The notes: generated by a model from the sequence alone, not told the origin. A DNA stretch of 32,000 nt from Trichodesmium erythraeum IMS101 (GCF_000014265.1 NC_008312.1:4620001-4652000); one strand, 5' to 3'; positions 1 to 19,001 are shown, numbered from the stretch's first letter. Made by a program: numbers and translations.

Positions 1-351
1 GGGGGTTTGTTTCTGAAGTATTTTTACTTGGTGACATATTTATATTAAGTCCGGTGTACATAGAAGATTTATTAAAAGAGTAAAACACTTATGCTTTCTG
101 GCAGGAGGCAGAAGGGTTAAAAGGTCAGGAAGCTTTAGGCAAAAGAGTCAGAAGGCTTCGGAAAAACGAGCTTTTTATGAATCTAATTTGGTATTAGTAG
201 TTAGTAGGTGCTAGGTTTTATAGCTAAATTCAGGAGTCAGAAGTTAAATTCGCAGCACGGACTATATTTGATAATTTAGGAATCTAACAGTCATGACAAC
301 TGTTATAAGAAAATGGGAAAAACCTATCAACTACCGCAACTTTTGAATTAT

Positions 352-387
352 ACCATACGGATTAATTTCCAGTTTCTACCGTATGGT
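352..387 (-). repeat. Perfect 9-bp inverted repeat (ACCATACGG ... CCGTATGGT) with an 18-nt loop. Possible transcript-end hairpin about 180 nt downstream of the last MAA-cluster gene.
   Basis: Arms read directly at 352-360 and 379-387. There is no convincing U-tract after it on the minus strand, so terminator function is only a possibility. Confidence 0.3.
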
Positions 388-564
388 CTACACTATTAAC
401 CCAACAACAAGGCAGAAGGAATTTCACCTACAAAGATAGATGTTTTATGTTTCATGTATTGACTGAAAAGGTTTTTCTATCTACTTTAGAGAGTTTTTTC
501 CCAGCCAACAAGTCCCATCTACTCAAGCTGTCTCAAAAATTCATAAAATCCTTGGTATGCTTCT

Positions 565-1650
565 TTAATTCCACTTAAACAAAGAACCACAAGCTACGCG
601 AGTTCTTCCTGCTGCTGCACTCCACAACTCTAGAGCTACATCCTCCAGACTTTCTCCATCTGCTTGAAGCATCCGCGAAATCATAGCAATTTTCCCAAAA
701 GTCCAGAATAAGCCTGCTTCCAGGAAATATGGTTCATTGGTGTTAGTATGTACCCGGAAATCATACAAAGAATAATCGCGACACCCCAATGCAATATGAG
801 CACTTTTAGCTGCATTCGCTAGTTTCTCAAATAACTCTGGAGTAACATTCGCCGGACAAATTGGCTTGGCTATAGGTTTCTCAGGTTGCTTTTCAGGAGT
901 TCCGTCAGATTGAAGTACCAACTTATCATTTACAGTTCTGATAGGATGTTCCTCTGTGACTAAATATTCTATCATAGGTAAAACTTGCAACTCACCCTTG
1001 CGCTCTACCACAGCTACACGCAATTCCCTTCCAGGAATATAATCCTCAACCAACAATTTATCCTCTAATTCAAACCCCTTATCCAAGGCTGCTTCTATCT
1101 GAGATTCATCCCACACCAATGTTACGCCCAAAGAATTGTCTTCCGAAGTTGGTTTCACAACAAAAGGAGGCTTCATTGTTAAAGTTTCTCCCCGCCGTAG
1201 TTGCTGCGCTTTAGCTACTTGTACCCCAGATGCCGAAACAACATTCCGCGTCTGAGCTTTGTTAGTTGCTAGTGCCGTACAATAGGATGGTGACCCCACT
1301 AAAGGTAGATTAAGCATATCCTCAAAAAATGCTCGGAAACTGGTCATACCAAGAAAGCAGAACATGTGGGGAACTACAACATCAATTTGAGGTAGTTGCA
1401 GAATCATGTCCTGAAGTAACATCTTTTCTGATAATGAATCTAAAGAAGCTCCCAACTGCCAAAGACCATCAGGATGTACTACTGCATAATAACTGCTGAC
1501 TCCAACTGGTTGCACTACTTCTTTGGCATAGAGTATTGATAGGTTGTAGTAGAATTCGGAAACACGGGAACCTGCCAGGTGCAAGACTTGTAATCTATTC
1601 ATTGTGGCTAAGGATGAGTGTTGATTTTGATTAATTTCTTCTAATTTCAT
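565..1650 (-). CDS. mysD: MysD-type D-Ala-D-Ala-ligase-like ATP-grasp enzyme, distal paralog (A). Expected to condense a second amino acid onto mycosporine-glycine.
   Basis: 361-aa ORF. By-eye alignment to E. coli DdlB: KPPFVVKPTSEDNSLGV (~IVKPSREGSSVG), EDYIPGRELRVAVV (~EKWLSGPEFTVAIL), omega-loop-like ...NDKLV...ICPA (~EAKYL...FCPA), YFLEAG (~YLLEAN). It is colinear with mysA/B/C on the same strand. Confidence 0.8.
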   Translation of the reverse strand: MKLEEINQNQHSSLATMNRLQVLHLAGSRVSEFYYNLSILYAKEVVQPVGVSSYYAVVHPDGLWQLGASLDSLSEKMLLQDMILQLPQIDVVVPHMFCFLGMTSFRAFFEDMLNLPLVGSPSYCTALATNKAQTRNVVSASGVQVAKAQQLRRGETLTMKPPFVVKPTSEDNSLGVTLVWDESQIEAALDKGFELEDKLLVEDYIPGRELRVAVVERKGELQVLPMIEYLVTEEHPIRTVNDKLVLQSDGTPEKQPEKPIAKPICPANVTPELFEKLANAAKSAHIALGCRDYSLYDFRVHTNTNEPYFLEAGLFWTFGKIAMISRMLQADGESLEDVALELWSAAAGRTRVACGSLFKWN

Positions 1651-1710
1651 TACTAATTATTTTTATTTTATATTTTTTGACTAATTAAATACTAACAGTT
1701 ATCCGCTTTT

Positions 1711-2796
1711 TTAATTCCACTTAAATAAAGAACCACAAGCCACACGAGTTCTTCCTGCTGCTGCACTCCACAACTCTAGGGATACATCCTCCAAACTTTG
1801 CCCATCAGCTTGAAGCATCCGCGAAATCATACTAATTTTCCCAAAACCCCAGAATAAGCCTGCTTCCAGAAAATATGGCTCATTAGTTTCAGCATGTACC
1901 CGGAAATCATACAAAGAATAGTCGCGACAACCCAATGCAATATGAGCATTTTTAGCTGCGTTTACTAGTTTTTCAAATAACTCTGGAGTAACATTCGCCG
2001 GACAAATTGGTTGAGCTATAGGTTTCTCAGGTTGCTTTCCAGGAGTTCCATCAGATTGAAGTACATATTTATCATGTACAGTTCTAATAGGGTGTTCTTC
2101 TGTGACTAAATATTCTATCATCGGCAAGACAGACAACTTACTCTCTCGCTCAACTACAGCTACACGCAATTCCCTTCCAGGAATATAATCTTCAACCAAC
2201 AATTTATTGTCTAATTCAAACCCCTTATCCAAGGCTGCTTCTATCTGAGATTCATCCCACACCAATGTTAACCCCAAAGAATTATCTTCCGAAGTTGGTT
2301 TCACAACAAAAGGAGGTTTCATTGTTAAAGTTTCTCCCCGCCCTAGTTGCTGCGCTTTAGCTACTTGTACCCCAGATGCCAAAACAACATTCCGCGTCTG
2401 AGCTTTGTTAGTTGCTAGTGCCGTACAATAGGATGGTGACCCCACTAAAGGTAGATTAAGCATATCCTCAAAAAATGCTCGGAAACTGGTCATACCAAGA
2501 AAGCAGAACATGTGGGGAACTACAACATCAATTTGAGGCAGTTGCAGAATCATGTCCTGAAGTAACATCTTTTCTGATAATGAATCTAAAGAAGCTCCCA
2601 ACTGCCAAAGACCATCAGGATGTACTACTGCATAATAACTGCTGACTCCAACTGGTTGCACTACTTCTTTGGCATAGAGTATTGATAGGTTGTAGTAGAA
2701 TTCGGAAACACGGGAACCTGCCAGGTGCAAGACTTGTAATCTATTCATTGTGGCTAAGGATGAGTGTTGATTTTGATTGATTTTTTCTAACTTCAT
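1711..2796 (-). CDS. mysD: MysD-type D-Ala-D-Ala-ligase-like ATP-grasp enzyme, proximal paralog (B).
   Basis: 361-aa ORF differing from paralog A at 22 of 361 residues (hand count, about 94% identical). Same motifs as A, but HDKYV replaces NDKLV at residues 241-245. Confidence 0.8.
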   Translation of the reverse strand: MKLEKINQNQHSSLATMNRLQVLHLAGSRVSEFYYNLSILYAKEVVQPVGVSSYYAVVHPDGLWQLGASLDSLSEKMLLQDMILQLPQIDVVVPHMFCFLGMTSFRAFFEDMLNLPLVGSPSYCTALATNKAQTRNVVLASGVQVAKAQQLGRGETLTMKPPFVVKPTSEDNSLGLTLVWDESQIEAALDKGFELDNKLLVEDYIPGRELRVAVVERESKLSVLPMIEYLVTEEHPIRTVHDKYVLQSDGTPGKQPEKPIAQPICPANVTPELFEKLVNAAKNAHIALGCRDYSLYDFRVHAETNEPYFLEAGLFWGFGKISMISRMLQADGQSLEDVSLELWSAAAGRTRVACGSLFKWN

Positions 2797-2977
2797 AATT
2801 ATTGTTATTTTAGATTGTTCTATACTAACAGTATTTAGGAATTTTGATACTTCAATTATTAAGTAATTAACATAGGTCGAATAACTTTTTTGATAATTAT
2901 AAGCTATAAGTGTGTTAATTATTCTTATGTTTACTTCTTATGTAGGGATGTTGCATACAACTTACCTACCTACTCCC

Positions 2978-4078
2978 TTACTTCTTTTTCATATCGCGAA
3001 TATTACACATATTTCCGAAAGCGGTGAGAATTTTACGCGGTGGTTGAACATTGAGCCTACCGTGGACAACCTGTAGGTTATCTATTACTAAAATGTCTCC
3101 TTGTCTCCAGGGAAACACTGTAGCATTTTTCCATTCAGCTTCCCCTAATTCTTTTGCCTCTGCCTCTGTTATTTTCGTATTGTTTCCTTCTTCATTAACC
3201 AAGTACATTTTTGGTTGTGCATTGTCTATCCCTTCCAGATTTCTATACAATTTAGAAGGCAAAAAATTGTAGTATATTATTTCTTTGAATGGATAGCGCT
3301 GCGCAATGCTGCGATACCATTCTCTGGCAACAAAAGAATCAAAAGTGCTGAGACAAAAGCACAGTTTGCCCGTTCTTGGGTGATGGAACACGGGAATGTA
3401 AGAACATTCAAAATAAAGAGAACCATCAGCTTTCCACTCAAAATAAAATTCCCCGTCTTCAAGCATTTTTGTAATTTCCTCTCGCGAGAGTTCCTCGAAA
3501 ACTATTCCTAATAAATGATTAGGAACATTTCTCACAAATTTCTGAGGTGTATTAGCGAATTTATGCTGCAAATTAGGAGACAATTCGTTAAAGATTTTTT
3601 CTGTATTAATAATAGGAGTTTCGCCATATAAAGTGGGTTCAATTTGACAGAAAAAAGCCAGACACATGGGCCTAACTGGCACCATATTCAGTTCATTATG
3701 TGGAGGTATTATCAAATTCCCTGGTGCTTCGGAAGAGGTGAAAACTTTATCAGTTATTCGATTTCTTTGAGAGCTGCCAAAATGATACTTTGATGCCAAT
3801 TTAACATTCAATAGCTCTAGGATATTTTCAAATTGTGCCGCAGTTTCTATTTCAAATCCCCGGAATAATAGAGCGCCGTAGTTGTCTTGCTGTCTATGAA
3901 ACCAATCTCTATTTTCCCTGACTAATTCAGCGAGAACTGAGAAGGATTTTTTCTGGACTGGTTCTATGACTAAAGGTAGTTTTTTTTCACCGGTAGTAAA
4001 ACTTTTTTCCTCATCGCGTAAAAACCGCAATTTAATATTTGATGACAGATAATTTGGTAGTTTTTCAATTGTTAGCAT
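2978..4078 (-). CDS. Fe(II)/2-oxoglutarate-dependent dioxygenase, TauD/TfdA / clavaminate-synthase-like fold. Candidate MysH-type MAA tailoring enzyme.
   Basis: 366-aa ORF. Facial-triad candidates are H127-x-E129 (IIPPHNELN; codon H127 at 3698-3700) and H339 in VIDNLQVVHGRLN, followed by Arg (R341/R348), as in CAS/AsnO/TauD-type enzymes. It is embedded in the MAA cluster. Confidence 0.7.
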   Translation of the reverse strand: MLTIEKLPNYLSSNIKLRFLRDEEKSFTTGEKKLPLVIEPVQKKSFSVLAELVRENRDWFHRQQDNYGALLFRGFEIETAAQFENILELLNVKLASKYHFGSSQRNRITDKVFTSSEAPGNLIIPPHNELNMVPVRPMCLAFFCQIEPTLYGETPIINTEKIFNELSPNLQHKFANTPQKFVRNVPNHLLGIVFEELSREEITKMLEDGEFYFEWKADGSLYFECSYIPVFHHPRTGKLCFCLSTFDSFVAREWYRSIAQRYPFKEIIYYNFLPSKLYRNLEGIDNAQPKMYLVNEEGNNTKITEAEAKELGEAEWKNATVFPWRQGDILVIDNLQVVHGRLNVQPPRKILTAFGNMCNIRDMKKK

Positions 4079-4226
4079 AGCTGAAAAATTGTTACTATTA
4101 TTAGTTTTTGTTTGTATTTTTTTTGATTATTTTTCAACTTTCACACACTGATGTATTTAAACACGGAACTGTCGGCCAAAAAATACATTAAGAGAAAATT
4201 GTGGTAGATGCAATAATTAAACTTAA

Positions 4227-5204
4227 TTAATTAGAAGACTCAACTCCTGTATTAACAGATTTACTTGATATAGCCAAATACATTCCCCATAAAATTATTG
4301 AGAAGCTTACCGAACTCCAGAGATTAATATTTTCCGAGAAAATTATCCAACCTTCGATCATACTAAGAGCAGGAGCACATAATGCAACTAAGCTAGTAAA
4401 CCCAGCAGATAATTTTTTGAGAGAATAAGCCCACAGCCCTATACCTATCATTTGACTACAAAGAGCTTGAATAATGACTGCAAGCCAACCAGTTAATGAA
4501 CTTGGAAAAAGTTGATCCTCAGTAATTAGAACTACAGGTAAGAGCAATAAGGCACTCGTTGTTGAAGACCAAGTCATAATTGTAACTGGGTTGAATTGAG
4601 TGCGAAGTTTCTGAACTATAAGTGGGTGTATACCAAAAAATACTGCTGAGAGTAAAGCTGCTAAGTCTCCTAGTAATTGTTCACTAATTCTAAATGAGAA
4701 AATATCATTCACTTCTAACAAGGCAGAACCACATATCGCCACAAACATACCAAGTAGAAATTTATGGTCAAAGGTTTGACTTAAAGCTAACCATGCTCCT
4801 AACACAGTAAATATAGGCACTAAACTATGGAGCATAGTAGAGTGAGCAATGCTTGTCATGGTTAAAGACCAAGCCCAAAGTATCAGACCAATAGATAAAA
4901 GGATCCCATCTGCTATCAGTAGCATTCCTTTTTTAACTAGTTCTGGTTTATTTAATTCAATTTGAGTTTTATTTTTTTGTTTTCGGTAATTTAAAGTTAA
5001 TAATCCATTTAGTAACCAAAAGGGAATAGCTGCAATCCAAAAACGATTGAATATTGTAGCATTTGGACCAAGATTATACTCGCTTAAACGGATAAAAATT
5101 GGTGAAAAAGATATACAGATTAGACTGCCAATTAATGCAGCTAAACAGTCTATAGGTATTGATGAGAAATGGTTTAATGGTAATAATCTAGCTTGATTGT
5201 TCAT
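4227..5204 (-). CDS. EamA/DMT-superfamily (drug/metabolite transporter) membrane protein.
   Basis: 325-aa ORF that is hydrophobic throughout, with about 10 predicted helices in two similar halves. This is the typical EamA-type size and layout. Confidence 0.7.
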   Translation of the reverse strand: MNNQARLLPLNHFSSIPIDCLAALIGSLICISFSPIFIRLSEYNLGPNATIFNRFWIAAIPFWLLNGLLTLNYRKQKNKTQIELNKPELVKKGMLLIADGILLSIGLILWAWSLTMTSIAHSTMLHSLVPIFTVLGAWLALSQTFDHKFLLGMFVAICGSALLEVNDIFSFRISEQLLGDLAALLSAVFFGIHPLIVQKLRTQFNPVTIMTWSSTTSALLLLPVVLITEDQLFPSSLTGWLAVIIQALCSQMIGIGLWAYSLKKLSAGFTSLVALCAPALSMIEGWIIFSENINLWSSVSFSIILWGMYLAISSKSVNTGVESSN

Positions 5205-5246
5205 CTTTTTTCTAATTGCTGAAATTGAAAAAGTAGTAGTATGATT

Positions 5247-6683
5247 TTATTGTTTACTCAAATCTTTAGGCCAAATTTGCAAATTAGCAATTCCATAAAC
5301 AATAAAGCCTGCTGCCATACCAGGCAAGACTTCATAAATAGCGCTTGATAGGTTAAAGCCTTTATTCCATATAATCGCAACTACTATACCAGTAATCATC
5401 ATTGTTATTGCGACTGGAACCCTTACAGGTTTTTGCCACACTCGCAATACTAACAACGGACCTAAAGCGCAGGCTAAAACTGACCAAGAGAAAATGACCA
5501 AAGCAAATACACTATTGTTTGTTATGAGAGCGATCGCTAATACAAAAGCAGTAACAGCTAAGGTAGCAATTTTAGCTTTTCGATAAGAGTTAGATCCACT
5601 GGGAACTAAATCTTGACTTAGTGCAGCAGAACATGATAATATTTGAGAATCTGCTGTAGAAATAGCTGCAGAAAAAAGTCCTGCTAACATCAACCCTACT
5701 AAAACTGCTGGCAATAATTCTATAGATAGATTCGGTAATGCTAACTCTGGGTCACCAGATGTCATTAATTCAGGTAACAAAACTCTGGCAGTTAATCCTA
5801 TACCAAAAGCTGTAGCCGAATTCATTAGACCGCAGACTAATTTTATGTTACGAGCTAACGCTATATTATCTGCAGAGTCAATTGCCATTGCTCTTACTAA
5901 TACATGAGGTTGACCGACAACACCCAAGCCTGACACCAACCACCCCAAAAAGTAAGGAAAAAACCCCCAAGGTAAATTAGTAGGCATCCAATTTGTTAGA
6001 GTGGGGTCAATGGCATTAAGCTTGACCCAAAGTTCTGTCAACCCTCCACAAGCCAGTAAACTTACTATACACAAAATCAACAGAGATAATATCATTAAAA
6101 TTCCCTGCACAGAGTCAGTCCATATAGAAGCACGGATACCTCCTGAAAAACAGTAGACAACCACAATTACAGCCCCAGCAATAATACCCAGTTCATAGTT
6201 CCAACCAAATATAGCATTCAGTCCTTTGCTTGCTGCTACCAGTTGAGCTGCAGCATAAGTACCCAGAATTCCTATGGTAATTAGTGCTGAAATTATTGTA
6301 ATCGAGCGCCCTTGATTTTTTGGACTTAGATTTTCTTGACCTAAGAATGAGGAGATTGTATCTGAGTCTGTTTCCTGAGAAACTAACCTCAACCTTTTAA
6401 ATATTAACAACCAAGCAATATAGTCTCCTATTGTCCAAGCAAGGGGTATCCAAATAGCAGCAAATCCAACTTTATAGATAAAACCTATCGAACCAATAAA
6501 TAGAAACCCACTCTGACCTGTTGCCATTGCGGATAGTGCTGTCAACCAGGGATTAACATTTCTACTGGCAAGTAAGTAATCAGTTGTTGTATTTTGCTTT
6601 TGTGTTGCGGAGTAAATGCCTACTACTGTAAATGATAGCAAAAAGGCTATAAATGTTATCCCAATCCAAATTTGTTTTTCCAT
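5247..6683 (-). CDS. Sodium:solute symporter family (SSS, PutP/PanF-like) transporter.
   Basis: 478-aa polytopic ORF. The N-terminal signature DYLLASRNVNPWLTALSAMATGQSGFLFIGSIG resembles the SSS motif (YFLAGR...LS..AS..S.W...G.PG). Contains one HIP1 site. Confidence 0.8.
   Translation of the reverse strand: MEKQIWIGITFIAFLLSFTVVGIYSATQKQNTTTDYLLASRNVNPWLTALSAMATGQSGFLFIGSIGFIYKVGFAAIWIPLAWTIGDYIAWLLIFKRLRLVSQETDSDTISSFLGQENLSPKNQGRSITIISALITIGILGTYAAAQLVAASKGLNAIFGWNYELGIIAGAVIVVVYCFSGGIRASIWTDSVQGILMILSLLILCIVSLLACGGLTELWVKLNAIDPTLTNWMPTNLPWGFFPYFLGWLVSGLGVVGQPHVLVRAMAIDSADNIALARNIKLVCGLMNSATAFGIGLTARVLLPELMTSGDPELALPNLSIELLPAVLVGLMLAGLFSAAISTADSQILSCSAALSQDLVPSGSNSYRKAKIATLAVTAFVLAIALITNNSVFALVIFSWSVLACALGPLLVLRVWQKPVRVPVAITMMITGIVVAIIWNKGFNLSSAIYEVLPGMAAGFIVYGIANLQIWPKDLSKQ
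5530..5537. repeat. HIP1 octamer GCGATCGC.
   Basis: Exact match read in the sequence. Confidence 0.95.
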
Positions 6684-6699
6684 TTTTCACTATTAAATT

Positions 6700-7025
6700 G
6701 TAGTATTATTTTATTGTTTACTCAAACTTTTAGGCAAAACCGTAAAATTAGCAATTCCAAAAAAATAAAACCTGCGACGATGCCAGGTAAGACTTCATTA
6801 ATAGCAATTGATTAGGTTAAGTTCTTTATTCCAGATAATGGCAATAATTATACCTGCAATCATTATCAATCATTGTTATTGCTACTGGAACACTTATAGT
6901 TTTTTGCCACACTGGCAATACCAATAACCGACCCAAAGCACAGGCTAAAATTTACCAGGAGAAAATCACCAAAGCAAATATACTATTATTTATTATCAGA
7001 GCTATCCCTAACACAACAGCAAAAC
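6700..7025 (-). pseudogene. Decayed 3'-terminal fragment (roughly the last 100 codons) of a second SSS symporter copy.
   Basis: 6711-7020 aligns with 5247-5560 (offset 1464) at clearly non-random identity, including the stop-proximal TTATTGTTTACTCAAA. It carries indels (for example an extra TATCAAT in ATCATTATCAATCATTGTTATTGC) and in-frame stops. The HIP1 site of the intact copy has decayed to GCTATCCC. Confidence 0.8.
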
Positions 7026-7681
7026 ATAATATAATAATATATCTTATTTTATTCTGCTGTATCTAATGATTTCTCAAGTTGGAGGGAGGCGAGGTTCTAC
7101 TTCTTTAGAGCTGACAAACTATTTATTAGCTTTTCTGCTAAAAGTTACAAACTTGGGATTAAAATCATGTGGCAATATTTCATAAGTTTTCAGCCATCAA
7201 ATTTGAGGTAACTTTAAACGACCTACCCCCCTGACTCCCCTACCACTAAGTTGATAGATGTAGGTATGGAACCATTAAGGGTAAAACTATCATTTCTGCC
7301 TTTTTTTCTTGAGTTTAGGTTGACCATACACTTTGGTAAATTTTCGTTTCCAAGCAACTGAAACAATACCTCAAAGCATATCAAGGAGGTGTTAAGTGAA
7401 ACTGCTTAGTACGAATAGTTTTTTTTCGGTTTAACTATTGCTACTAAAAGTTTATGCAGATAAATTGCAGTCGGAAATTTGATGTTACCACCTTGATTAC
7501 CCATGTTATGATTTAATATATTTTGGGTTATGATATCCAGCTTACTTGCATGAATTGTTATAAACTTACAAGATTATAGCTAACAGCTTATGTAGCCTTG
7601 AGTTTTTAGCTGACTTGTAAACGCTGCTTGCAAATAAATAAGTATCTTGTCTAGAAAAGACAAATAGCTAAATAGTGACCT

Positions 7682-9046
7682 TTAATCCCCTCCCAACTCT
7701 ACCAGTTTTCCAATATTAAAGTCAATTCTTACCCAACCTTTAAATTTGCGTAAATTATTGAGTAGTAATAAGAAAATTTGCCAGTGGTGAACCATCAAAA
7801 ATGGTAAGGGGTCATTCACTTGAAAAATAGCATCTTTTCCTTGATTAATTCTTCTAATCCAAGCTTTCAATTGCTCTAATGACCTAACTCCTGTTAGCCT
7901 CCATAATTCATGGTAAGTCCAATAAGTAGGTTGACTATTTAGTCCCGGTAATATTGGGTTTTCATTATCATTTTGACTATCTTTTAAATAAGCATCTGCT
8001 ACCCCTGGATGGTCATGAAAAGTTGTAATTGCTGAATGAGTTCTGGGATTACATTCTATGGGAAAAACTCGACCATCCTCTGTCTGAATAAAATCAAATG
8101 AAATTTGACCAGTAATATTTAATTCTCTAACAAATTTTTCTACCCAATCGTAAATTTGTGGATTATCAACATGAGCATAATTGACTTGAAATTCTGATGA
8201 TTCGCAACAGCAATACAGTCTGATTTTCCCTTTTCTAACAGTGCTATGAGTACAATATTCTTTGCCTTTAACAAACTCTTGCATAATCCATGGTTTCTCT
8301 TCACTAATAGGCAAATTTCCAACAAATTGTTCCATTTCTGCCCTTGAATTCATGGGCAATTTTGTCAAGTCTAAACGACGTACTGAATCGTAAGGAATAC
8401 TTTTAAGAATATATCTACTCCCATCAGCAGCAAAGTCAAAATTGAGAATTTGTTTTGGGTCTGTAATTAAAAAAGATTTTGGTACAGATAAACCAAAACT
8501 TTTAGCTTTTTCCATAAATGTGAACTTGTTATCTAACATTTGAGTTACTTCTACGTCAAAGTGCAAAACTTCACAATATTCAGATAAAAGTGGTTTTGCT
8601 AAAGATTCATAGTAACTTCCTACTGGGCTAGATACTGGAATAAATACATCTATGTTTTCTTTTTTTACAATCTCTAATAATCCCTGACAATAACCATCCC
8701 AATCTTTATTTGGAGCAGGTATTGTATAGAAACCTGTAACGGCATTAGAAAATCTATTTCCTGATAACCAATATTTATTTGTTTCTAATATAAAAGCTTT
8801 ATGACCTGCTGCATGAAATGAACGGGCAAGTTGCAAGCATTTTGTCATTTTTGCGCCCGTGATTAAGATATTTTTGGGATTATCTGCCACTAATTTTTTG
8901 GTAAATGGTAGACTGATTAAATTCCAGAGTAGTAAAGGTATTACCCTTAATAAATTAAATGGTAAAAAAATCAATAATAATGCAATAGTTCCGATATTTT
9001 GGAACAATGCATAAGCACGTACTTGAATAAATAATATTAGTCCCAT
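7682..9046 (-). CDS. mysC: MysC ATP-grasp ligase (4-deoxygadusol + glycine -> mycosporine-glycine).
   Basis: 454-aa ORF closely matching the remembered Anabaena variabilis Ava_3856 sequence: ITGAKMTKCLQLARSFHAAGH, SIPYDSVRRLDLTKLP, KPWIMQEF, CTHSTVR, QISFDFIQ, IECNPRTHSAITTF, PLPFLMVHHWQI, IDFNIGKLVELGGD. The N-terminus is hydrophobic, as in homologs. Confidence 0.92.
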   Translation of the reverse strand: MGLILFIQVRAYALFQNIGTIALLLIFLPFNLLRVIPLLLWNLISLPFTKKLVADNPKNILITGAKMTKCLQLARSFHAAGHKAFILETNKYWLSGNRFSNAVTGFYTIPAPNKDWDGYCQGLLEIVKKENIDVFIPVSSPVGSYYESLAKPLLSEYCEVLHFDVEVTQMLDNKFTFMEKAKSFGLSVPKSFLITDPKQILNFDFAADGSRYILKSIPYDSVRRLDLTKLPMNSRAEMEQFVGNLPISEEKPWIMQEFVKGKEYCTHSTVRKGKIRLYCCCESSEFQVNYAHVDNPQIYDWVEKFVRELNITGQISFDFIQTEDGRVFPIECNPRTHSAITTFHDHPGVADAYLKDSQNDNENPILPGLNSQPTYWTYHELWRLTGVRSLEQLKAWIRRINQGKDAIFQVNDPLPFLMVHHWQIFLLLLNNLRKFKGWVRIDFNIGKLVELGGD

Positions 9047-9833
9047 CTTTAGTAGTTTTGTAGAGATAACAATATTTTATGAGTCTTCATTTATGCTTTG
9101 GTGAAAAGAAGGTGATCATTAGCCTGAAAGCTTTCCAAGTTCAACTCTAAACTTTGGAGAGTTTCAAGAGACTTTTTCTTTTCTATAGTATTTATTTATG
9201 AGACAAGTCGGGTATTCAAACCAATCTTAATTATAGAAATTCCCCGATAGGCGGGCGAAGTTTTCAAAATAATTGTTCAGTAAAAGTACTTTTTATGGGG
9301 TTATTTGAGCATAAGCAATAACTATTATCTTGTCATAAATAGCATTAATTTTGGCAACAAAGCCATTGAGACACACAATATAACAAATCAATTCCTCAGG
9401 AATAGTGTAGATTTCTAAGGGTTAACCATTGTTAATATTGACTACTGATAATTGAATATTAGCAGTTTTTAGTAGTTCTTCTTCAATAGTAATTAAAATT
9501 TCGTAGTATAACTGTGCTTTATTTCCTGTGAGTTGATGTAGTTTATTATTAAAAATAGTTGGAAATGAGAACAAGCCAGAAGCCGGAGAAAGTTAATTAC
9601 GCTCAATAAATTTCCCAGGCACAAGCTACAAATTTCCAGTATTATTTAATTTACTTCCCTCAGTCGCACTTAATGATAGTTCTGGTATATTCGGTAACAT
9701 TATAAATGCTACCAAATCTTGAGGAACTTATGCTTCTACGGATCAGGCAAAAGGTAAAAAGTTAAAATGAGCTGACAAAAGGTTGTAAACTTTTACTAAT
9801 TCCTCATGTCATAATATTTTCCTCAAATCATAA

Positions 9834-10664
9834 CTACTTTCGCCTAATAATAGTTAACCCATCTCGTAAAGGTAGTAAAACTTGTTCTACTCTAGGATCT
9901 TCTGCAACAAAGCGATTAAATTGAGCGATCGCTTCTCCATTAAGATTACGTTTTTCTTTCGGTAGATAGGGTTCCCCTTGAAGTAAAGTATTATCGACAC
10001 AAATAAATCCATTTGTTGCTAACAAACTTGTATCCAAAAGTATTTTGAAGTACTCTATATACTCTTTTTTATCAGCATCAATAAAGACTAAATCAAAAGT
10101 TTCTCCTGCATCTGCCAACTTCTTAATGGTTTCTAGAGCAGGTGCAACTTCCACCGAGATTTTGCTTCCATGTGGAGACCCATCAAAACAAGATTTAGCA
10201 AAGTTAGATACATATTCATCCACTTCACAAGCAACCATCCGCCCATTTTGTGGTAAAGCTTCCGCCATTGCCAATGCTGAATACCCAGTAAACATCCCTA
10301 TTTCCAGGATACTTTTAGCCCCAATCATATGAACAAACATTTTTAAGGTTTGTCCCTCAATATGCCCAGATAACATTTCCTGCTCTAATTGACGCACAGT
10401 CTCGCTATTGGAAAATCTTGAACTCCATGGTTCTTGACGAGTCTTTTCTGCTAATGCTGTCAAAGCAGGAGATTCTTGAGTGGTATTTTCTTCTAAATAG
10501 GGGTCAAGACCTGCCCCTAATTGATACGCTTGCTTAATAGCATTAGATAATTCTGGTGGTATTTCTGCAGTTTCTGCCATCTTGACAATTCTTTCAAGTT
10601 GCTCTACCAAAATACCTAATGGTGTAACTGGTCTGGCAGTTTCTGTTTTCACAACGGTTGTCAT
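9834..10664 (-). CDS. mysB: MysB SAM-dependent O-methyltransferase (catechol-OMT-like).
   Basis: 276-aa ORF. Near-identical blocks to remembered Ava_3857: ARPVTPLGIL, EQEMLSGHIEGQTLKMFVHM, LEIGMFTGYSALAMAEALP, FDLVFIDADKKEY, GFICVDNTLLQGE, NGEAIAQFN, DPRVEQVLLPLRDGLTIIRR. Confidence 0.93.
   Translation of the reverse strand: MTTVVKTETARPVTPLGILVEQLERIVKMAETAEIPPELSNAIKQAYQLGAGLDPYLEENTTQESPALTALAEKTRQEPWSSRFSNSETVRQLEQEMLSGHIEGQTLKMFVHMIGAKSILEIGMFTGYSALAMAEALPQNGRMVACEVDEYVSNFAKSCFDGSPHGSKISVEVAPALETIKKLADAGETFDLVFIDADKKEYIEYFKILLDTSLLATNGFICVDNTLLQGEPYLPKEKRNLNGEAIAQFNRFVAEDPRVEQVLLPLRDGLTIIRRK
9925..9932. repeat. HIP1 octamer GCGATCGC.
   Basis: Exact match read in the sequence. Confidence 0.95.
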
Positions 10665-11339
10665 ATTTTTATCCCTTACTACTTAATAACAGCAGAGCAG
10701 TAGAGCATCTAGACAAAAATTATAGGTAAAATCTAAGCCTCAAATCACTAAAATTTTCCCTGATAACAGATAGACTCGAAGTGGAAAAATGTTTCTCCCT
10801 TCTACTTATAGGAGAGGGTTCAGGGAAGGAACAGTATATTCTCCAACTTACCTACATTTTCAATCTAGACACACTAGTAAGGTGGGCTAATATTGAGTTA
10901 TCTGTACTCAACTAATCGAAAATTTTCTCATATTTGCCCACTTTAAACGTTTCTCCCAAAAAGGAGAAGAAAAAAAATCTATCGTCAGGACTGAGGCATA
11001 AGCTAATAGATATCTCAAGAAAAGATTTTTTAAGCTCTTACCCTGCCGTTCCCAAATCGGCATTTTTGGAGAGGTATAACATATCTAATAGGGATAAACA
11101 ACCGTTCACCCCTACAGATAGTGCATAATTTTATACGCCCGGAATTTTTCCTAATTATTTTCAGAAATCAGAAAATTGATATAAATGTCACTAATTATGA
11201 CATTTTAATATTTACTTTCAGCTTCAATTTTTACCTGTCAGCAGCACAACTATGACAATGATAAACATTTAAGCTAACCGCATTTCTCTATCTTGAGAAT
11301 TGCATATCATAAGGGGTTATTAGCAGACTCCCTATTTTT

Positions 11340-12689
11340 TTACTCCAAACCTAGGTCGCTTAAATACATTTCTTCACCTTTTCCTTGACTACCAAAAGAA
11401 GTAAAAGAAGCACAAAATTTCTTATGTTCCTCAACAGCAGATGTTAATAAATCTGGAGATATTTCCTTCGCAAAACTACAAGAACCAATACCTGTAGGTA
11501 GGGGTGCCCACAACCTACGACCGCGCTTACGAGTTATATTTTTCTGAGCTTGAAGCATTAACTCTGTATCTTCGATAATTTCATGGTAAACAGACAAACC
11601 CATAGAATGACACAAGTTAACTATTCGATCACGTTCATTTGTTGTTATCCAACCCATCTCTAACGCTAAAGTAGCTCCAAGAGACATACCAATAGTTACA
11701 GCATGACCGTGCATTAGTTTGACCACTGGCTCAAAACGGGGACTCCATGTATGACCGTAAGCATGAGGTCGGTCTTGATAGGTTTCAAACATATTTGTTC
11801 CTTCATGCTTCATATAAGAATACAAAGCACGATAAATCACCTCATCAGATATTTTTACCAGTTCCTCATCTGCATCAAAATTAGCAAAATGAGTTTCAAC
11901 TAAACGTCGACCATATTTTTCCAGCAATTCAAATAATGTTTGATCATCAGTAACTGCCATTTTAATAATTTCTGCCATTCCGTTGCGAATATGACCTTTT
12001 GCCAAAGTACGGAACAAAGTACGGTCTACTATAGTCATCACAGGGGGATGATATGCTCCAATACCATTTTTAAATAGCTTACTATTTGTGCAGGTACGAG
12101 GAGATGGTCCAGCATCAATAGCAGCAACAACTGATGTTCCAATCATTACATAAGGTGTCCGCCGATGTTGTAAACTACAGGCTAAACCAGCAACATCACT
12201 GAGTACACCACCTCCAATTATCAAAACAGGTTCGTTACGAGATACATCACAACCATCTTTGCCCAAGAATTGCAATATTTTATGGACCGTATCAGTATTT
12301 TTGTCTGACTCCCAAGCACGACAGACAAGAGTTTTCAGAGGAATATCATTCTGCTCAAAATAATTTGTCAATGATTTTCCATAAAGTTCATCTACCATGT
12401 GATCGACAACTGCTACGCATCGATTACGACTTTTATAGATATTAGCTAAAATAGGGTTAGATGGATCTAAAACTCCATTTACTAATTTGACTTCTGATTT
12501 GAGGGTAAATGTTGCAGAAATCTCGAATGAGCGACCATCATCCACTGCCTTTATTTCTCCACGACCATCATACCACTCTGAAGTACGATATTGTTCTGCA
12601 TGATCGCGCCGAATACTTGGATCAAATACGAAGTCTGGCTTGTTGACTTTTTCAATTACTGGTACAGAGGTTGATATTGCGTTGCTCAT
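11340..12689 (-). CDS. mysA: MysA, DHQS-like sedoheptulose-7-phosphate cyclase (desmethyl-4-deoxygadusol synthase type).
   Basis: 449-aa ORF. Dehydroquinate-synthase-like blocks: LIIGGGVLSDVAGLA, ...IDAG..., KNGIGAYHPP, NGMAEIIKMA, AYGHTWSP, HGHAV. It lies first in the colinear mysA-mysB-mysC order. Confidence 0.85.
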   Translation of the reverse strand: MSNAISTSVPVIEKVNKPDFVFDPSIRRDHAEQYRTSEWYDGRGEIKAVDDGRSFEISATFTLKSEVKLVNGVLDPSNPILANIYKSRNRCVAVVDHMVDELYGKSLTNYFEQNDIPLKTLVCRAWESDKNTDTVHKILQFLGKDGCDVSRNEPVLIIGGGVLSDVAGLACSLQHRRTPYVMIGTSVVAAIDAGPSPRTCTNSKLFKNGIGAYHPPVMTIVDRTLFRTLAKGHIRNGMAEIIKMAVTDDQTLFELLEKYGRRLVETHFANFDADEELVKISDEVIYRALYSYMKHEGTNMFETYQDRPHAYGHTWSPRFEPVVKLMHGHAVTIGMSLGATLALEMGWITTNERDRIVNLCHSMGLSVYHEIIEDTELMLQAQKNITRKRGRRLWAPLPTGIGSCSFAKEISPDLLTSAVEEHKKFCASFTSFGSQGKGEEMYLSDLGLE

Positions 12690-13769
12690 GATTTGTATTT
12701 AGGTAATTGTTTGCTTTAGAGGTATTGTCTGATGTTATTGCACAACAAACCAGTCTGCCTACACCTGAAGTCAGTGTAAGAGCTTAAATTAACACCTTAT
12801 TATTGAGATGAACATAACCCAAAGGATATACCATTTTTTTGAGTGGTTTCTAAGTATTGAATGATAGAGTAATTATTTTGGTAATTCTCTAAATGCAGTA
12901 ATACTTATAAGTAAACTTCTTTGACTGTAAAGATAAATTAACTACAAGAATCACTACCTATAAACGAATACCATTATTTTTATCTCTATTTTACGCCTAA
13001 GTATCGGCATATTAAAGTTTACCATCTCACCTTTTTGTTTGCTTTTATCAAAAAGCATTTTGATTTCTGGAATCTTGGTGGTATGAATCCTGCACAGACT
13101 TATGTTACCTCAATTTTATCCACAGTAAACTAGACAATCTTCCTAACATAGAAGATAGTATAATGTAATAACTTTTCCTTGAGAGTATTTGGTTCAGCTT
13201 CCTTATTATTGATAGCAAAACTAAACTAATACTTATTAGTCTTCCCTTATTCTTCTAGTTCTCCACAGTTCTATAGTACAAATTTTCTCTTCTTCCTTCT
13301 CCTCTAGCTTCCAATTTAGATTATAACGGTGATTCATGTTTTGACCTTGATTTAACAGTTGCCTAATAATTATGGGGTTTAGCATAGTTGTCAAATTCTT
13401 GATTCATGACTAATGGAACTTACCACGAGTTTTAATTGTACCAACATCAATTTATTGAATTATTACTTTAGTTAGCTTCTAGATATCTTAAAATCACTTA
13501 TGCTTGAGGGCATACTACATAAGCATTTTCACATTCTAATACCTAACACTAATAGAGGGGGTCAAAATTTGTCTATTGTTTATAGGAGATAAACTGTTGA
13601 TTAGACACAGGTTTATCAAGTACCCAATAGAAAAGTTCATCCTGAGCTTACCCGCTAGCAAAGTTTCATTATCTTAATATATTGGCATTGAGGTAAATCG
13701 TACCTGTTATGATTAATAAGACCATACTATTAGTGCTAACACTTTTTAACAATAAGCAACAAGACTAAC

Positions 13770-14230
13770 TTACTTTAGGGGATATCTAAGGAATAGGGTA
13801 GAAAGCTTTTCTACCAAGCTTTTTATAAAAATCCCACAATCACCATTCTAGTAACGATCAAGGCGAAAATCATCTTGATCAGCAATCACTTTTTTATAAC
13901 CTAAATTATTTGAGGCTTCTCGAGTCTAACTAACAGTTTTATTAGTATACACTTCTGAAACATCTAAGACAACCTTACTATACTTAGTAGCTTTATGCTT
14001 TAAAAAAAGTTCAAATCTATAATGTACCCAGCTCAACATTTGTCTAACTGACTTGCTTATGAGTTTACTATTAGATTTGATTCTAGTTCAAGAAAGTTCA
14101 AAAATTAACAGTAAAATTACATCAAAGTTATGAACCAATAACAAAGCTGTCCTTTGATGCAGCTCAGTCATAGGAGAATCCTAATCTTTAACCTCATTCG
14201 GTTAGCTGCTTTTTTAATCCTTTACTTTAT
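13770..14230 (-). mobile_element. tnpB: Decayed TnpB (IS200/IS605/IS607-type OrfB) C-terminal relic; pseudogene.
   Basis: The minus-strand translation reads ...RIKKAANRMRLKIR / (frameshift) DSPMTELHQRTALLLVHNFDVILLLIFELS*TRIKSNSKLISKSVRQMLSWVHYRFELFLKHKATKYSKVVLDVSEVYTNKTVS*TREASNNLGYKKVIADQDDFRLDRY*NGDCGIFIKSLVEKL. This matches the TnpB pattern (ELH....L...FD.I.LP.FE...M, ML....HY.F...L..KA..YG..V..V.E.YTSKTCS.CG...LDRD.NGA.GIF). It has at least 3 in-frame stops and 1 frameshift, and the Zn-ribbon cysteines are lost. Confidence 0.75.
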
Positions 14231-14942
14231 TAAGTAAAGTATTCTTATTGCTTCTGACTATGGGACCTGATTTGTATCATTGTCTTAACATTATATAACT
14301 TATTGTAAACAAATATTAGCAAATCAGCAATGGTTAGTCAATCGTCAAAACAGCTTTATAAATTTCTCCCATTGATTTCTAAAGTTTATCTTTAGTGTCG
14401 ATTTTTAGTTTAACCCTAATTCCGAATCATTTTACTTAACATCTAGTTTGTATTTGTTAATATTTCTTAATTATATATTAATTTAATAAATGATTAAAAT
14501 TAAAACAAGCTTAATATGATATAATATTTAGCCTATTGATTTTCAGAACTATCAGCTTAAGTCAAAATTATTAACTGTAAAGGATTTCAATTCTATTAAG
14601 TGGTCTTGCAAAATTAATTACACATTTATAGAAGGTGAACTCTTGGCCTTCTAAAAGCACAGATAATTAAAATAGGTAAATAATTTTGAAGAGGTACTTA
14701 ATGCCCTAATACTAAAGGTTAAAAAAGAATAGGGATTAAATAATACAGCAGATTCTACTTTAGTGAGGTACACCCATAAGAGCGAGATACTGGCATTGCA
14801 AAGATTTAATTGTTAATATTTGTACTTCATGTACTTGGAATATACTGTAAGTATGATTAAAAGACTTTATGAATCTATCCCACTAATAGTCAAATGATAA
14901 TACTATGATAAGCGTTACTCAGTTATGGTAAATTGAAAGAGG

Positions 14943-17844: not shown

Positions 17845-19001
<1,157 letters not shown>

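Follow-up and report, generated by a model that had tools for sequence, protein, structure and literature searches.

[quoted passage not shown] The Brasilonema strains carry a mysABC-methyltransferase-transporter-dioxygenase-mysE arrangement and produce nothing but palythine, in a UV-inducible manner; their dioxygenase was named mysH by the authors, though it belongs to the TauD family (PMC9918943). Nostoc sp. UHCC 0926 possesses mysF, mysI and mysE as three consecutive plasmid genes, distant from mysABC and not separated by a DMT gene, and the chemistry proposed for this module starts with the loss of a glycine arm, which leaves a palythine core, MysI being the proposed palythine-forming enzyme, and proceeds to N-methylation (Arsin et al. 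2023, PMC10510106). Clusters with a proline-specific MysE accompanied by mysI, mysF and mysD were noted by genome mining, in a paper that mentions neither transporters nor a product for them (Kim et al. 2025, PMC12232313). Another Fe(II)/2-oxoglutarate (2OG) oxygenase from a MAA cluster, MysH of Nostoc linckia NIES-25 (Chen et al. 2021), turns disubstituted MAAs into palythines, according to the summary in PMC10666671. Given the Brasilonema, UHCC 0926 and Pro-code mysE clusters, the statement in an earlier note on the locus studied here that described MAA clusters are compact is out of date. Trichodesmium itself accumulates several MAAs in large amounts and releases UV-absorbing material (PMC3083659).

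An expanded MAA cluster in Trichodesmium erythraeum

The analysed stretch of DNA (the window) comprises 32,000 nt of Trichodesmium erythraeum IMS101, and its positions 1-12689 hold the larger part of an expanded MAA cluster with the following features:

11340..12689, minus strand: mysA, 449 aa (PF01761/PF24621, 6e-20)
9834..10664, minus strand: mysB, O-methyltransferase, 276 aa (PF01596, 1.4e-51)
9281..9559, minus strand: panD-like pseudogene, found by tblastn inside the 787-bp mysB-mysC spacer
7682..9046, minus strand: mysC, 454 aa (Pfam ATP-grasp_3 and NCBIfam PRK06849)
6714..7116, minus strand: truncated SSS relic, found by direct repeats and tblastn inside the 998-bp mysC-SSS spacer
5247..6683, minus strand: SSS symporter, 478 aa (PF00474, 6e-58)
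4227..5204, minus strand: EamA/DMT transporter, 325 aa (two PF00892 domains, 3e-33)
2978..4078, minus strand: Fe(II)/2OG dioxygenase, MysI type, 366 aa (PF02668, 4e-20)
1711..2796, minus strand: mysD-B, D-Ala-D-Ala-ligase-like, Tyr244 isoform, 361 aa (PF07478, 1e-23)
565..1650, minus strand: mysD-A, D-Ala-D-Ala-ligase-like, Leu244 isoform, 361 aa (PF07478, 1e-19)
1..37, minus strand: start of a dehydrogenase-like gene, first 12 codons, by identity to assembly L082

The ORF listing agrees exactly with the eight colinear minus-strand genes reported earlier, from mysA to mysD-A, and a Pfam search returned the predicted families for all eight in the same order; the intact mysA, mysB and mysC and the two mysD genes bear out the assignment of the locus to MAA synthesis. 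The same gene order, including both ligase copies, is present in the independent assemblies L081 (ENA) and L082 (NCBI), and the duplication is therefore no assembly artefact.

These assemblies also demonstrate that the cluster has more genes than the eight first counted and extends leftwards out of the window past mysD-A. Window positions 37..1 read ATGTCACCAAGT... and are identical to L082 from 14042 on, where they begin the next gene, coding for a 322-aa NAD-binding beta-hydroxyacid-dehydrogenase-like protein. It is followed in L081 and L082 by genes for a 1331-aa MysE-type NRPS (C-A-PCP-TE), a 151-aa ORF (orf151) and a 345-aa MysF-like methyltransferase (PF08100/PF00891). The C domain of this NRPS is complete, and the NRPS code, DVQF[V/I]AQVVK, is close to a proline code.

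Compared with the described systems, the Trichodesmium cluster contains the four functions of N. punctiforme mysABCD in the same order, but it is not compact and adds a second mysD, transporters and an oxygenase. With Brasilonema it has in common the mysABC core and the DMT-dioxygenase pair (63% identity for dioxygenases P0029/P0030, 48-49% for DMT), as well as a MysF-like methyltransferase and a MysE-type NRPS within the cluster (loci L010 and L015), whereas Brasilonema lacks the SSS symporter, mysD and the panD-like gene, and carries an NRPS whose code is for glycine and whose C domain is truncated. Nostoc sp. UHCC 0926 likewise combines a dioxygenase of the same TauD/TfdA orthologue group (via its Stigonema best match) with a PF00891-type methyltransferase and a MysE NRPS (PMC10510106); unlike there, the module in Trichodesmium is fused to mysABC and accompanied by two mysD genes and two transporters. 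The proline-specific MysE clusters resemble it in gene company, and the NRPS code of Trichodesmium is close to theirs. Most parts of the cluster have thus been described already, and what is new is the two transporter families as putative MAA movers. An expanded MAA cluster with the pathway and transport roles proposed below is, in our judgement, the probable explanation of the locus as a whole.

Core genes and proposed pathway

The mysA product is a sugar-phosphate cyclase with a dehydroquinate-synthase fold that scores under the AroB equivalog cut-offs (NCBIfam); it is 67-87% identical to MysA of marine relatives and only 34-42% identical to MysA of the Nostocales loci. Identity across related loci is 64-89% for MysB (19 loci) and 59-91% for MysC, which scores 574 bits with PRK06849 (NCBIfam cut-off 406). 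The mysA step is the first towards 4-deoxygadusol, to which MysC in characterised clusters joins glycine. In Trichodesmium, MysA and MysB would produce 4-deoxygadusol and MysC would convert it with glycine to mycosporine-glycine. The two MysD isoforms (Tyr244 and Leu244) may then differ in the amino acid that they attach (Ser, Thr or Gly), giving shinorine, porphyra-334 or mycosporine-2-glycine. The dioxygenase would hydroxylate the alpha-carbon of the N-carboxymethyl (glycyl) arm of such a disubstituted MAA, and the hydroxylated arm would leave as glyoxylate, yielding a palythine-type imine or amine. The methyltransferase and the NRPS beyond the window may decorate the product further.

The predicted isoforms recur in related genomes. 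MysD-B carries K220, Y244 and S322, as do the paralogues encoded upstream of the dioxygenase in Okeania, P01_H01 and Dapis; MysD-A carries E220, Q222, L244 and A322, as do the dioxygenase-downstream paralogues of Okeania and P01_H01. Among the compared loci, MysD proteins of the Nostoc type share only 37-41% identity with the window ligases. The specificity residues 249 and 257 of Np.MysD do not map reliably onto these divergent proteins.

The dioxygenase and its genomic neighbours

Homologues of the dioxygenase with at least 59% identity occur in 34 cyanobacterial species, the next identity level being about 30%. The protein is 64% identical to P0017 of Stigonema ocellatum, the protein reported as best match of the named MysI (PMC10510106 Table S6), and an alignment of 25 family members has H127, E129, H339, R341 and R348 invariant. 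By these sequence comparisons we classify it as a TauD/TfdA-family MysI orthologue that keeps the Fe/2OG ligand residues. The earlier note had cited MysH as the oxygenase precedent. A MysH-type assignment was rejected: MysH is a PhyH-family enzyme (PF05721; PMC10510106), the window protein belongs to TauD/TfdA (PF02668), and it has no detectable similarity to the product of the PhyH gene in the MAA cluster of Nostoc HK-01. MysH would be a functional analogue of MysI in its proposed role, and the pair looks like convergent recruitment rather than homology.

Matches to the dioxygenase in PDB by sequence and fold were At3g21360, TauD, TfdA-like aryloxyalkanoate dioxygenases and ScoE, with 10-19% identity. 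In a structure model that is of low confidence (pLDDT 63), including the active-site segment, they appear as fold neighbours with a common Fe/2OG triad, whereas the substrate of MysI would be a MAA. TfdA hydroxylates the CH2 of X-CH2-COOH, so that the group leaves as glyoxylate, and ScoE oxidises an N-carboxymethyl group. Since both enzymes act on X-CH2-COOH, this chemistry fits the proposed MysI reaction, which would follow the logic of TfdA on aryl-O-CH2-COOH. By analogy, palythine formation by the dioxygenase is plausible, and an actinobacterial TauD-containing operon gave palythines, as cited in PMC11888242.

The 34 dioxygenase loci also contain the DMT gene (31 loci), the MysF-like methyltransferase (29) and the MysE-type NRPS (27). 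In 31 of the 34 species the DMT homologue lies on the same strand as the dioxygenase and at most 4 kb upstream of it, and in 24 the distance is at most 500 bp; its identity drops in parallel with that of the dioxygenase across loci. The EamA/DMT gene is thus a conserved upstream partner of the dioxygenase in Oscillatoriales and Nostocales. Its product has no close relative that is solved or characterised.

Transporters linked to MAA genes

The SSS symporter belongs to a second conserved linkage. Homologues in MAA clusters are 64-91% identical, those of the seven sampled genomes outside the dioxygenase set 64-77%. In six of these seven the gene comes directly after mysC, starting 8-320 bp downstream of it; in the seventh, Moorena, the homologue lies inside the MAA cluster downstream of mysC-DMT-NRPS-methyltransferase. 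All seven genomes and four close relatives have an SSS homologue in the MAA cluster. Named sources are mostly marine taxa, and in marine cyanobacteria the family separates mysC from the ligase or NRPS. Transporters and dioxygenase are strongly linked to MAA genes in relatives, as the reading of the earlier note required. The note's single inserted block of about 4 kb, however, resolves into two separately distributed and widely conserved modules, mysC-SSS and DMT-dioxygenase(-NRPS-methyltransferase).

From synteny and from the habits of the two families, we infer substrates and directions as follows. Export of finished MAAs is the most likely role of the DMT protein. For the Na+-coupled SSS protein it is uptake, either of leaked MAAs or mycosporine-glycine, or of amino-acid substrates; as an N-substituted glycine, mycosporine-glycine is chemically proline-like. 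Uptake by SSS and export by DMT would form a release-and-recapture loop in seawater; OpuE-type transporters recapture compatible solute. The literature searched contains no paper that assigns a MAA transport function to any gene, in agreement with the earlier note. Because the SSS and DMT families recur in MAA clusters across many cyanobacteria, they are the best candidates yet for moving MAAs or their precursors across the membrane.

Alternative explanations

Both transporters come from very large generalist families and the searchable literature holds no experimental link to MAAs, as would be expected if they were ordinary housekeeping permeases carried as passengers. This is highly improbable given that their position is kept across orders (SSS in the seven sampled genomes and their four close relatives, DMT in 31 of 34 species), that only 8-60 bp separate them from flanking mys genes in several genomes, and that all named proteins among the best 120 SSS and the best 120 DMT matches are cyanobacterial. 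A more serious possibility, though one we do not favour, is that the SSS symporter imports precursors rather than carrying MAAs, supplying MysC, MysD or the Pro-code NRPS with glycine, serine, threonine or proline. The protein, which passes the cut-off of TIGR00813 (193.7 vs 184; NCBIfam), has the Na+/proline symporters as its nearest named subfamily by TIGR02121 and source annotations; it has the fold family and the Na2-site Ser-Thr pair of PutP/OpuE-type symporters and conserves PutP residues Y140, W244, S340 and T341, its gene adjoins the glycine-adding mysC, and the cluster NRPS has a proline-like code. Yet it scores 262 bits with TIGR02121, far under the PutP equivalog cut-off of 515 (NCBIfam), is only 29-31% identical to PutP/OpuE-type symporters (29% to E. 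coli PutP), and has Gly in place of Asp55 and Val or Ala in place of Tyr248. It is found in a MAA cluster, whereas PutP is found with put genes. The SSS gene is also present in NRPS-free clusters (L089, L091, L092, L094 and L095) and therefore has no fixed link to proline. In the oligotrophic ocean, moreover, free amino acids are very scarce, which speaks against their import.

For the enzymes, the alternatives concern the ligase pair and the dioxygenase. The 94% protein identity of the MysD copies and their essentially identical first 135 codons (dS = 0.034) could reflect a recent tandem duplication, functionally redundant and serving dosage only. We regard this as rather unlikely, since dS reaches 0.25 in codons 136-361, the repeat is limited to the ORF, with the 60-bp spacer not part of the 1146-bp unit, the dN/dS of the pair is 0.21, and the dioxygenase of sister genera is flanked by two or three mysD paralogues that show the same Tyr/Leu244 difference. 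By their substitution pattern, the copies are paralogues of older date that gene conversion has partly homogenised, and purifying selection acts on both. The ligase noted earlier as present twice is retained as two isoforms, which may differ in substrate preference. Less probable still is a role of the dioxygenase as a hydroxylase of free or carrier-bound amino acids for the MysE-type NRPS. TauD-like enzymes act in this way in many NRPS clusters, a MysE-type NRPS accompanies the dioxygenase in most of its loci, the distant homologues P0101 and P0110 are fused to condensation domains, and MysI activity is a proposal without in vitro demonstration (PMC10510106, PMC10666671). However, Roseofilum (L005) and Scytonema tolypothrichoides (L017) combine the dioxygenase with mysD and lack an NRPS in the flanks compared, which reach 8-10 kb downstream of it, and Richelia (L007) has no NRPS within 6 kb downstream of it; the Brasilonema strains that carry the module make palythine only, and a glycine-code MysE (DILQLGLIWK) offers no side chain to hydroxylate. 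Palythine formation is the reading we prefer.

Decayed genes in the long spacers

The three long spacers have the lengths given earlier (675, 787 and 998 bp), and two of them are occupied by decayed genes. The panD-like relic (aspartate 1-decarboxylase family) was detected by tblastn with the intact L089 and L091 genes as queries (E = 2e-26 to 5e-27). Its lesions, which are common to L081-L084, are two in-frame stops, a deletion of 4 residues and a change of the Gly-Ser processing site to Ile-Leu; L001, L003, L005, L089 and L091 have an intact gene. The other relic is a truncated second SSS copy, recognised by direct repeats D2 and D3, whose match is the intact gene's 3' end; tblastn aligns residues of about 351-429 in one frame and of about 437-478 in another, indicating a frameshift. 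Two intact SSS copies stand in tandem in each of L001 and L002, and an SSS fragment is also present in Okeania L003. Scans of the locus for promoters and terminators gave signals at shuffle level. The long spacers had been taken to argue for several transcription units. This is a weak argument, because two of them hold gene relics and the ribosomal operon in the same window is itself interrupted by gaps of 606 and 760 bp, which makes such spacers typical of the genome.

Gene content and boundaries of the MAA cluster

Mycosporine-like amino acids, or MAAs, serve marine phytoplankton as their main small-molecule sunscreens and are targeted for the production of natural sunscreens, and we know of no account of how they pass the membrane, be it by export to sheaths and colony mucilage, leakage, re-uptake or transfer to grazers. 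The ORF listing of the Trichodesmium erythraeum window returned the same eight minus-strand genes that the earlier note had read from the DNA, at identical coordinates and with no competing long ORF among the window ORFs at the cluster, and every predicted protein family was matched in the Pfam search:

11340-12689, minus strand: mysA, PF01761 and PF24621
9834-10664, minus strand: mysB, PF01596
7682-9046, minus strand: mysC, ATP-grasp; PRK06849 in NCBIfam, 574 bits (cut-off 406)
5247-6683, minus strand: SSS symporter, PF00474
4227-5204, minus strand: DMT transporter, two EamA repeats (PF00892)
2978-4078, minus strand: dioxygenase, PF02668
1711-2796, minus strand: mysD-B, PF07478
565-1650, minus strand: mysD-A, PF07478

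The characteristic components of an MAA cluster are thus present, including adjacent ORFs for a DHQS-fold sugar-phosphate cyclase and an O-methyltransferase (a mysA-mysB pair that is also found in related loci whose fetched DNA covers that flank), an ATP-grasp ligase of the MysC type by its PRK06849 match, and two PF07478 ORFs, with a MysE-type NRPS just outside the window. Judged by the dioxygenase (95% identity), the Trichodesmium MAG MAG_R02 is nearest among species-representative genomes, and the exact protein also occurs on contigs of GCA_018457135.1, of GCA_000963755.3, which we take to be T. thiebautii, and of ENA and Logan assemblies. On contigs with the exact protein the cluster runs past mysD-A:

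528 bp downstream of mysD-A: NAD-binding dehydrogenase, 322 aa, PF03446 (window bases 37..1 are its codons 1-12)
next, outside the window: NRPS, 1331 aa, domains C-A-PCP-TE
next, outside the window: 151-aa ORF
next, outside the window: methyltransferase, 345 aa, PF08100/PF00891

On the right-hand side, mysA forms the boundary of the cluster, since upstream of it come 3.6 kb (12690-16273) that contain no ORF of at least 74 aa, then a pentapeptide-repeat gene, prfA and a ribosomal-protein/rpoA/secY/adk cluster. The pentapeptide-repeat protein (293 aa; 16274-17155, plus strand) is the sole plus-strand gene between the cluster and prfA. No coding relic turned up in a search of the 3.6-kb stretch, which resembles close relatives at the nucleotide level only and holds short dispersed repeats. 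One such repeat (15949-16062) matches the mysC-SSS spacer of Dapis (locus L004, 4788-4900), and a further short repeat elsewhere in the window (2849-2954) matches intergenic DNA of bin P01_H01 (L002, 15889-15993) and MAG_R02 (L001, 2497-2577); both are probably small mobile or repeat elements of the clade. A 32-bp sequence repeated twice in tandem (18937-19001) overlaps the prfA start, and the tRNA scan gave no gene.

The window MysA shares 67-87% identity with marine relatives but just 34-42% with MysA of the Nostocales loci, against 59-71% for MysB and MysC. Such a split agrees with an earlier mention of two distant MysA clades (PMC10510106). The MAAs reported from Trichodesmium spp. are shinorine, asterina-330, porphyra-334, mycosporine-glycine and palythene, along with unidentified ones (PMC3083659). 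We conclude that the window holds a genuine, largely intact and expanded MAA cluster, whose enzyme set combines described parts in a new way: mysABC, two mysD genes and MysI-, MysF- and MysE-type enzymes.

Two conserved transporter modules

The SSS, DMT and dioxygenase genes had been described in the earlier note as a single inserted block. Instead, two separate conserved modules emerged when all cluster proteins were mapped onto 34 species-level loci having a dioxygenase of at least 59% identity.

Occurrence of cluster genes among the 34 dioxygenase-bearing loci
DMT homolog on the same strand, at most 4 kb upstream of the dioxygenase: 31/34
DMT homolog at most 500 bp from the dioxygenase: 24/34
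MysF-like methyltransferase: 29/34
MysE-type NRPS: 27/34
at least one of mysA-D in the fetched flanks: 24/34
SSS gene: 4/34

The four loci with an SSS gene belong to marine Oscillatoriales relatives (MAG_R02, P01_H01, Okeania and Dapis). Among these, P01_H01, Okeania and Dapis have DMT-mysD-dioxygenase after the SSS gene(s) in the fetched order, with mysA-B-C upstream as well in Okeania and Dapis and an additional mysD past the dioxygenase in Okeania and P01_H01; the locus of MAG_R02 extends no further than the dioxygenase and lacks mysD in its DMT-dioxygenase interval.

Homologs of the SSS protein at 64-91% identity form a large set, mostly from marine cyanobacteria. We sampled seven genomic contexts of SSS homologs outside the dioxygenase set, as well as three for DMT, and all seven SSS genes lie within MAA clusters. 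In six of them, from a second Trichodesmium lineage, Geitlerinemataceae, Crocosphaera, Oscillatoriales RM2_1_1, Calothrix rhizosoleniae and Xenococcaceae, the SSS gene directly follows mysC, the usual order being mysA-mysB-(panD-like)-mysC-SSS-mysD with some gaps of just 8-60 bp. The seventh context, in Moorena, reads mysABC-DMT-NRPS-methyltransferase-DMT fragment-SSS.

Trichodesmium has at least two MAA architectures, the expanded one of the window and a simple one in GCA_051439685.1 (locus L089), where mysB-panD-like-mysC-SSS-orf151-mysD is followed by unrelated genes; the two provide a natural comparison for MAA chemotypes. The orf151 family (151-198 aa, no Pfam match) recurs in MAA clusters of Trichodesmium, Dapis and P01_H01, placed either after the NRPS gene or between the SSS gene and mysD, depending on the cluster:

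L082 (NCBI contig with the identical dioxygenase), 19430-19885
L002 (P01_H01), 8294-8698
L004 (Dapis), 15457-15897
L089 (Trichodesmium), 4234-4830
L090 (a further comparison locus), 1527-1895

Distant DMT homologs (43-47% identity) in Microcoleus anatoxicus (L097, 9001-11294) and a Coleofasciculaceae genome (L099, 9001-11138) directly precede or overlap a gene for a Ddl-like ATP-grasp ligase (391-394 aa) that is no ortholog of MysD, with no mysABC nearby, and constitute a second conserved pair of a DMT transporter and an ATP-grasp ligase.

Decayed genes in the long spacers

The spacers of 675, 787 and 998 bp have the sizes initially reported, yet they do not support the accompanying argument for several transcription units, as two of them hold gene relics:

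9281-9559, minus strand: panD-like pseudogene, in the 787-bp mysB-mysC spacer
6714-7116, minus strand: frameshifted relic of a second SSS copy (last ~128 codons), in the 998-bp mysC-SSS spacer

The panD-like pseudogene is interrupted by two stops, lacks 4 residues and has lost its Gly-Ser processing site, and these lesions are identical in four assemblies. Between mysB and mysC of several marine cyanobacterial MAA clusters there is a panD-like gene (aspartate 1-decarboxylase family, PF02261) with an intact Gly-Ser self-processing site; it is intact at this position in five relatives and split in Dapis:

L001 (MAG_R02), 4053-4394
L003 (Okeania), 3015-3356
L005 (Roseofilum), 3467-3808
L089 (Trichodesmium), 558-908
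L091 (a further comparison locus), 6076-6447

In a limited literature search, no top-ranked paper joined mycosporine with panD or aspartate decarboxylase, and the gene could encode an unrecognized MAA tailoring or precursor enzyme. Two intact SSS copies are retained in MAG_R02 and P01_H01. The 675-bp mysA-mysB spacer has no coding relic and resembles close relatives in nucleotide sequence only.

Gaps of 606 bp (rplM-truA, 21653-22258) and 760 bp (rpsM-rpsK, 25077-25836) also interrupt the otherwise canonical ribosomal protein/rpoA operon of the window. The intergenic gaps along SSS-DMT-dioxygenase-mysD-mysD are just 42-181 bp. Over positions 1-16300 a consensus scan gave 68 promoter-like sites, compared with 60 ± 8 in shuffled sequences, and 10 terminator-like sites, compared with 9.8 ± 2.5. 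Given the relics, the ribosomal-operon gaps and these shuffle-level counts, the long spacers reflect gene decay and a loose genome style and provide no evidence for several transcription units. Thus, what looks like a long "spacer" in a Trichodesmium cluster can prove to be a decayed accessory gene instead of regulatory architecture. It should be noted that the window as a whole has an unusually low coding density. As for known RNAs, such as a riboswitch, within the spacers, an Rfam search of the whole window at E ≤ 1 returned a single sub-threshold match, to the eukaryotic snoRNA SNORA69 within the SSS relic (6806-6892, minus strand; 33.8 bits, gathering threshold 47, E = 0.022), which is taken as chance.

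A TauD-type dioxygenase of the MysI group

The oxygenases named in MAA clusters include MysH, which belongs to the phytanoyl-CoA dioxygenase family, and the TauD/TfdA dioxygenases that Arsin et al. named MysI (PMC10510106). The window protein matches PF02668 (3.6e-20) and has no PhyH match in Pfam, so its identification as MysH was rejected. The PhyH gene product of the plasmid-borne MAA cluster in Nostoc HK-01 matches PF05721 at 7e-33 and has no similarity to the window dioxygenase (E = 4.5). These assignments put right the repeated mislabeling of TauD-type dioxygenases as MysH.

We found 57 homologs at 51-97% identity, every named one cyanobacterial; the next matches reach at most 34%, and this drop sets the MysI group apart from other TauD proteins. 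The best match reported for the named MysI of Nostoc sp. UHCC 0926 is Stigonema ocellatum MBR8837277, 86% identical (PMC10510106 Table S6), which in our set (P0017, locus L006) is 64% identical to the window protein. Through this indirect link the window dioxygenase is assigned, from sequence, as an ortholog of UHCC 0926 MysI. A MysF methyltransferase and a MysE NRPS lie 3-7 kb downstream of it, outside the window, on two contigs with the identical protein (L081 from ENA, L082 from NCBI). The Fe(II)/2OG ligand residues H127, E129, H339, R341 and R348 are invariant across 25 orthologs, so the enzyme looks catalytically competent.

Its AlphaFold model (pLDDT 63) is of low confidence, good for family-level fold matches only, and at that level the PDB sequence and fold neighbors are At3g21360, TauD, TfdA-like aryloxyalkanoate dioxygenases and ScoE/SfaA. 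TfdA and ScoE oxidize X-CH2-COOH groups. Such chemistry fits the published proposal that MysI hydroxylates the glycyl arm of an MAA, whose departure gives the palythine core (PMC10510106). By analogy, we propose that the window dioxygenase would likewise turn a glycine-bearing MAA into a palythine-type product. The support is correlative and comes from Brasilonema, where a mysABC-methyltransferase-transporter-dioxygenase-mysE cluster accompanies palythine as the sole MAA made (PMC9918943); the Brasilonema dioxygenase is 63% identical to that of the window.

Candidate functions of the transporters

The SSS protein belongs to its superfamily by TIGR00813 (193.7, cut-off 184) and PF00474 (197 bits) but falls far below the cut-offs of the PutP Na+/proline symporter models (TIGR02121, 262 vs 515; PRK15419, 173 vs 955), and its identification as PutP was rejected. 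It is 29-31% identical to E. coli PutP; among what we take to be Na+ and proline site residues, the Ser340/Thr341 pair, Y140 and W244 are retained, and Gly takes the place of Asp55 and Val or Ala that of Tyr248. Members of the SSS family work as Na+-driven importers, and this one may recapture leaked MAAs or mycosporine-glycine, which as an N-substituted glycine is chemically near an imino acid. Alternatively, it may import amino-acid substrates of the pathway; a proline-specific supply is disfavored by the presence of SSS genes in clusters that lack an NRPS.

The DMT protein is of the EamA type (PF00892 in two stretches, 2.6e-33) and scores below the cut-offs of all named NCBIfam equivalogs, including YddG and 2A78; a PDB sequence search returned no match. 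EamA proteins commonly export amino acids and their derivatives, and the tight DMT-dioxygenase pairing suggests that this one would export tailored MAA products. Trichodesmium reportedly has large amounts of several MAAs and releases UV-absorbing material (PMC3083659).

Our literature search found no paper tying a symporter or an EamA protein to MAA clusters, the sole transporter mention being one word in the Brasilonema paper (PMC9918943). The conserved place of the two transporter families, and of the panD-like gene of the relatives, in MAA clusters appears not to have been described before. We tentatively put forward a combined scheme, which as a whole we consider rather unlikely, in which the marine post-mysC SSS protein would be a dedicated Na+-coupled salvage system for MAAs or mycosporine-glycine, the dioxygenase-linked DMT protein an MAA exporter and the panD-like protein an unrecognized MAA tailoring enzyme. 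If true, the SSS and DMT proteins would be the first transporters for MAAs known from any organism and would explain both the release and the retention of UV-absorbing material by Trichodesmium colonies. The locus and the synteny survey yield two concrete, clonable candidate transporter families, along with a natural pair of ligase isoforms and a TauD-type candidate tailoring enzyme, and these transporters, ligases and dioxygenase are open to assay in E. coli or yeast strains that already make MAAs.

The NRPS and the two MysD ligases

Over residues 182-1331, the NRPS outside the window shares 50% identity with Nostocales MysE. By specificity codes extracted by hand from motifs, Nostocales MysE has a glycine code (DILQLGLIWK), whereas the Trichodesmium and Dapis enzymes, whose C domain is complete, have DVQF[V/I]AQVVK, 1-2 positions from a proline code. 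This agrees with uncharacterized clusters reported by Kim et al. (PMC12232313), in which a "proline-specific MysE" is accompanied by mysI, mysF and mysD. A 2026 preprint describes an NRPS-type cluster in all T. thiebautii genomes, with an antiSMASH match to hexose-palythine-serine/hexose-shinorine, and this cluster is very likely the present locus.

The mysD-A and mysD-B proteins are 94% identical, and the similar block is limited to the ORFs (559-1650 and 1705-2796), the 60-bp spacer being unrepeated. Synonymous divergence is strongly heterogeneous (dS 0.034 over codons 1-135 and 0.25 over codons 136-361; dN/dS 0.21). A simple recent tandem duplication was rejected, because the repeat stops at the ORF ends and dS varies in this way. 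Okeania and P01_H01 have one mysD upstream of the dioxygenase and one or two downstream; at sites that differ between the window copies, mysD-B shares K220, Y244 and S322 with the upstream paralogs, and mysD-A shares E220, Q222, L244 and A322 with the downstream ones. The pair is best read, from these comparisons, as two old paralogs whose 5' halves were homogenized by gene conversion and which have both been selectively kept.

The Np.MysD specificity rule (residues 249 and 257; our numbering was calibrated on F249 and S257 of Nostoc HK-01 MysD) was set aside for prediction, since in the marine clade the loop has 2 extra residues and diverges too far for a reliable alignment to K254 and K/Q262 of the window ligases. 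As the MysD omega loop controls Ser/Thr preference (bioRxiv 10.1101/2024.09.14.613006), different amino-acid preferences of the two copies are plausible by analogy.

Finally, an ENA metagenome contig encodes a 302-aa protein (P0063) in which dioxygenase residues 1-88 are fused in frame to residues ~149-361 of mysD-A, corresponding to window positions ~3815-4078 joined to ~565-1206. This implies either that some environmental Trichodesmium population has lost most of the dioxygenase, the whole of mysD-B and the 5' part of mysD-A by deletion, or that the contig is an assembly chimera.
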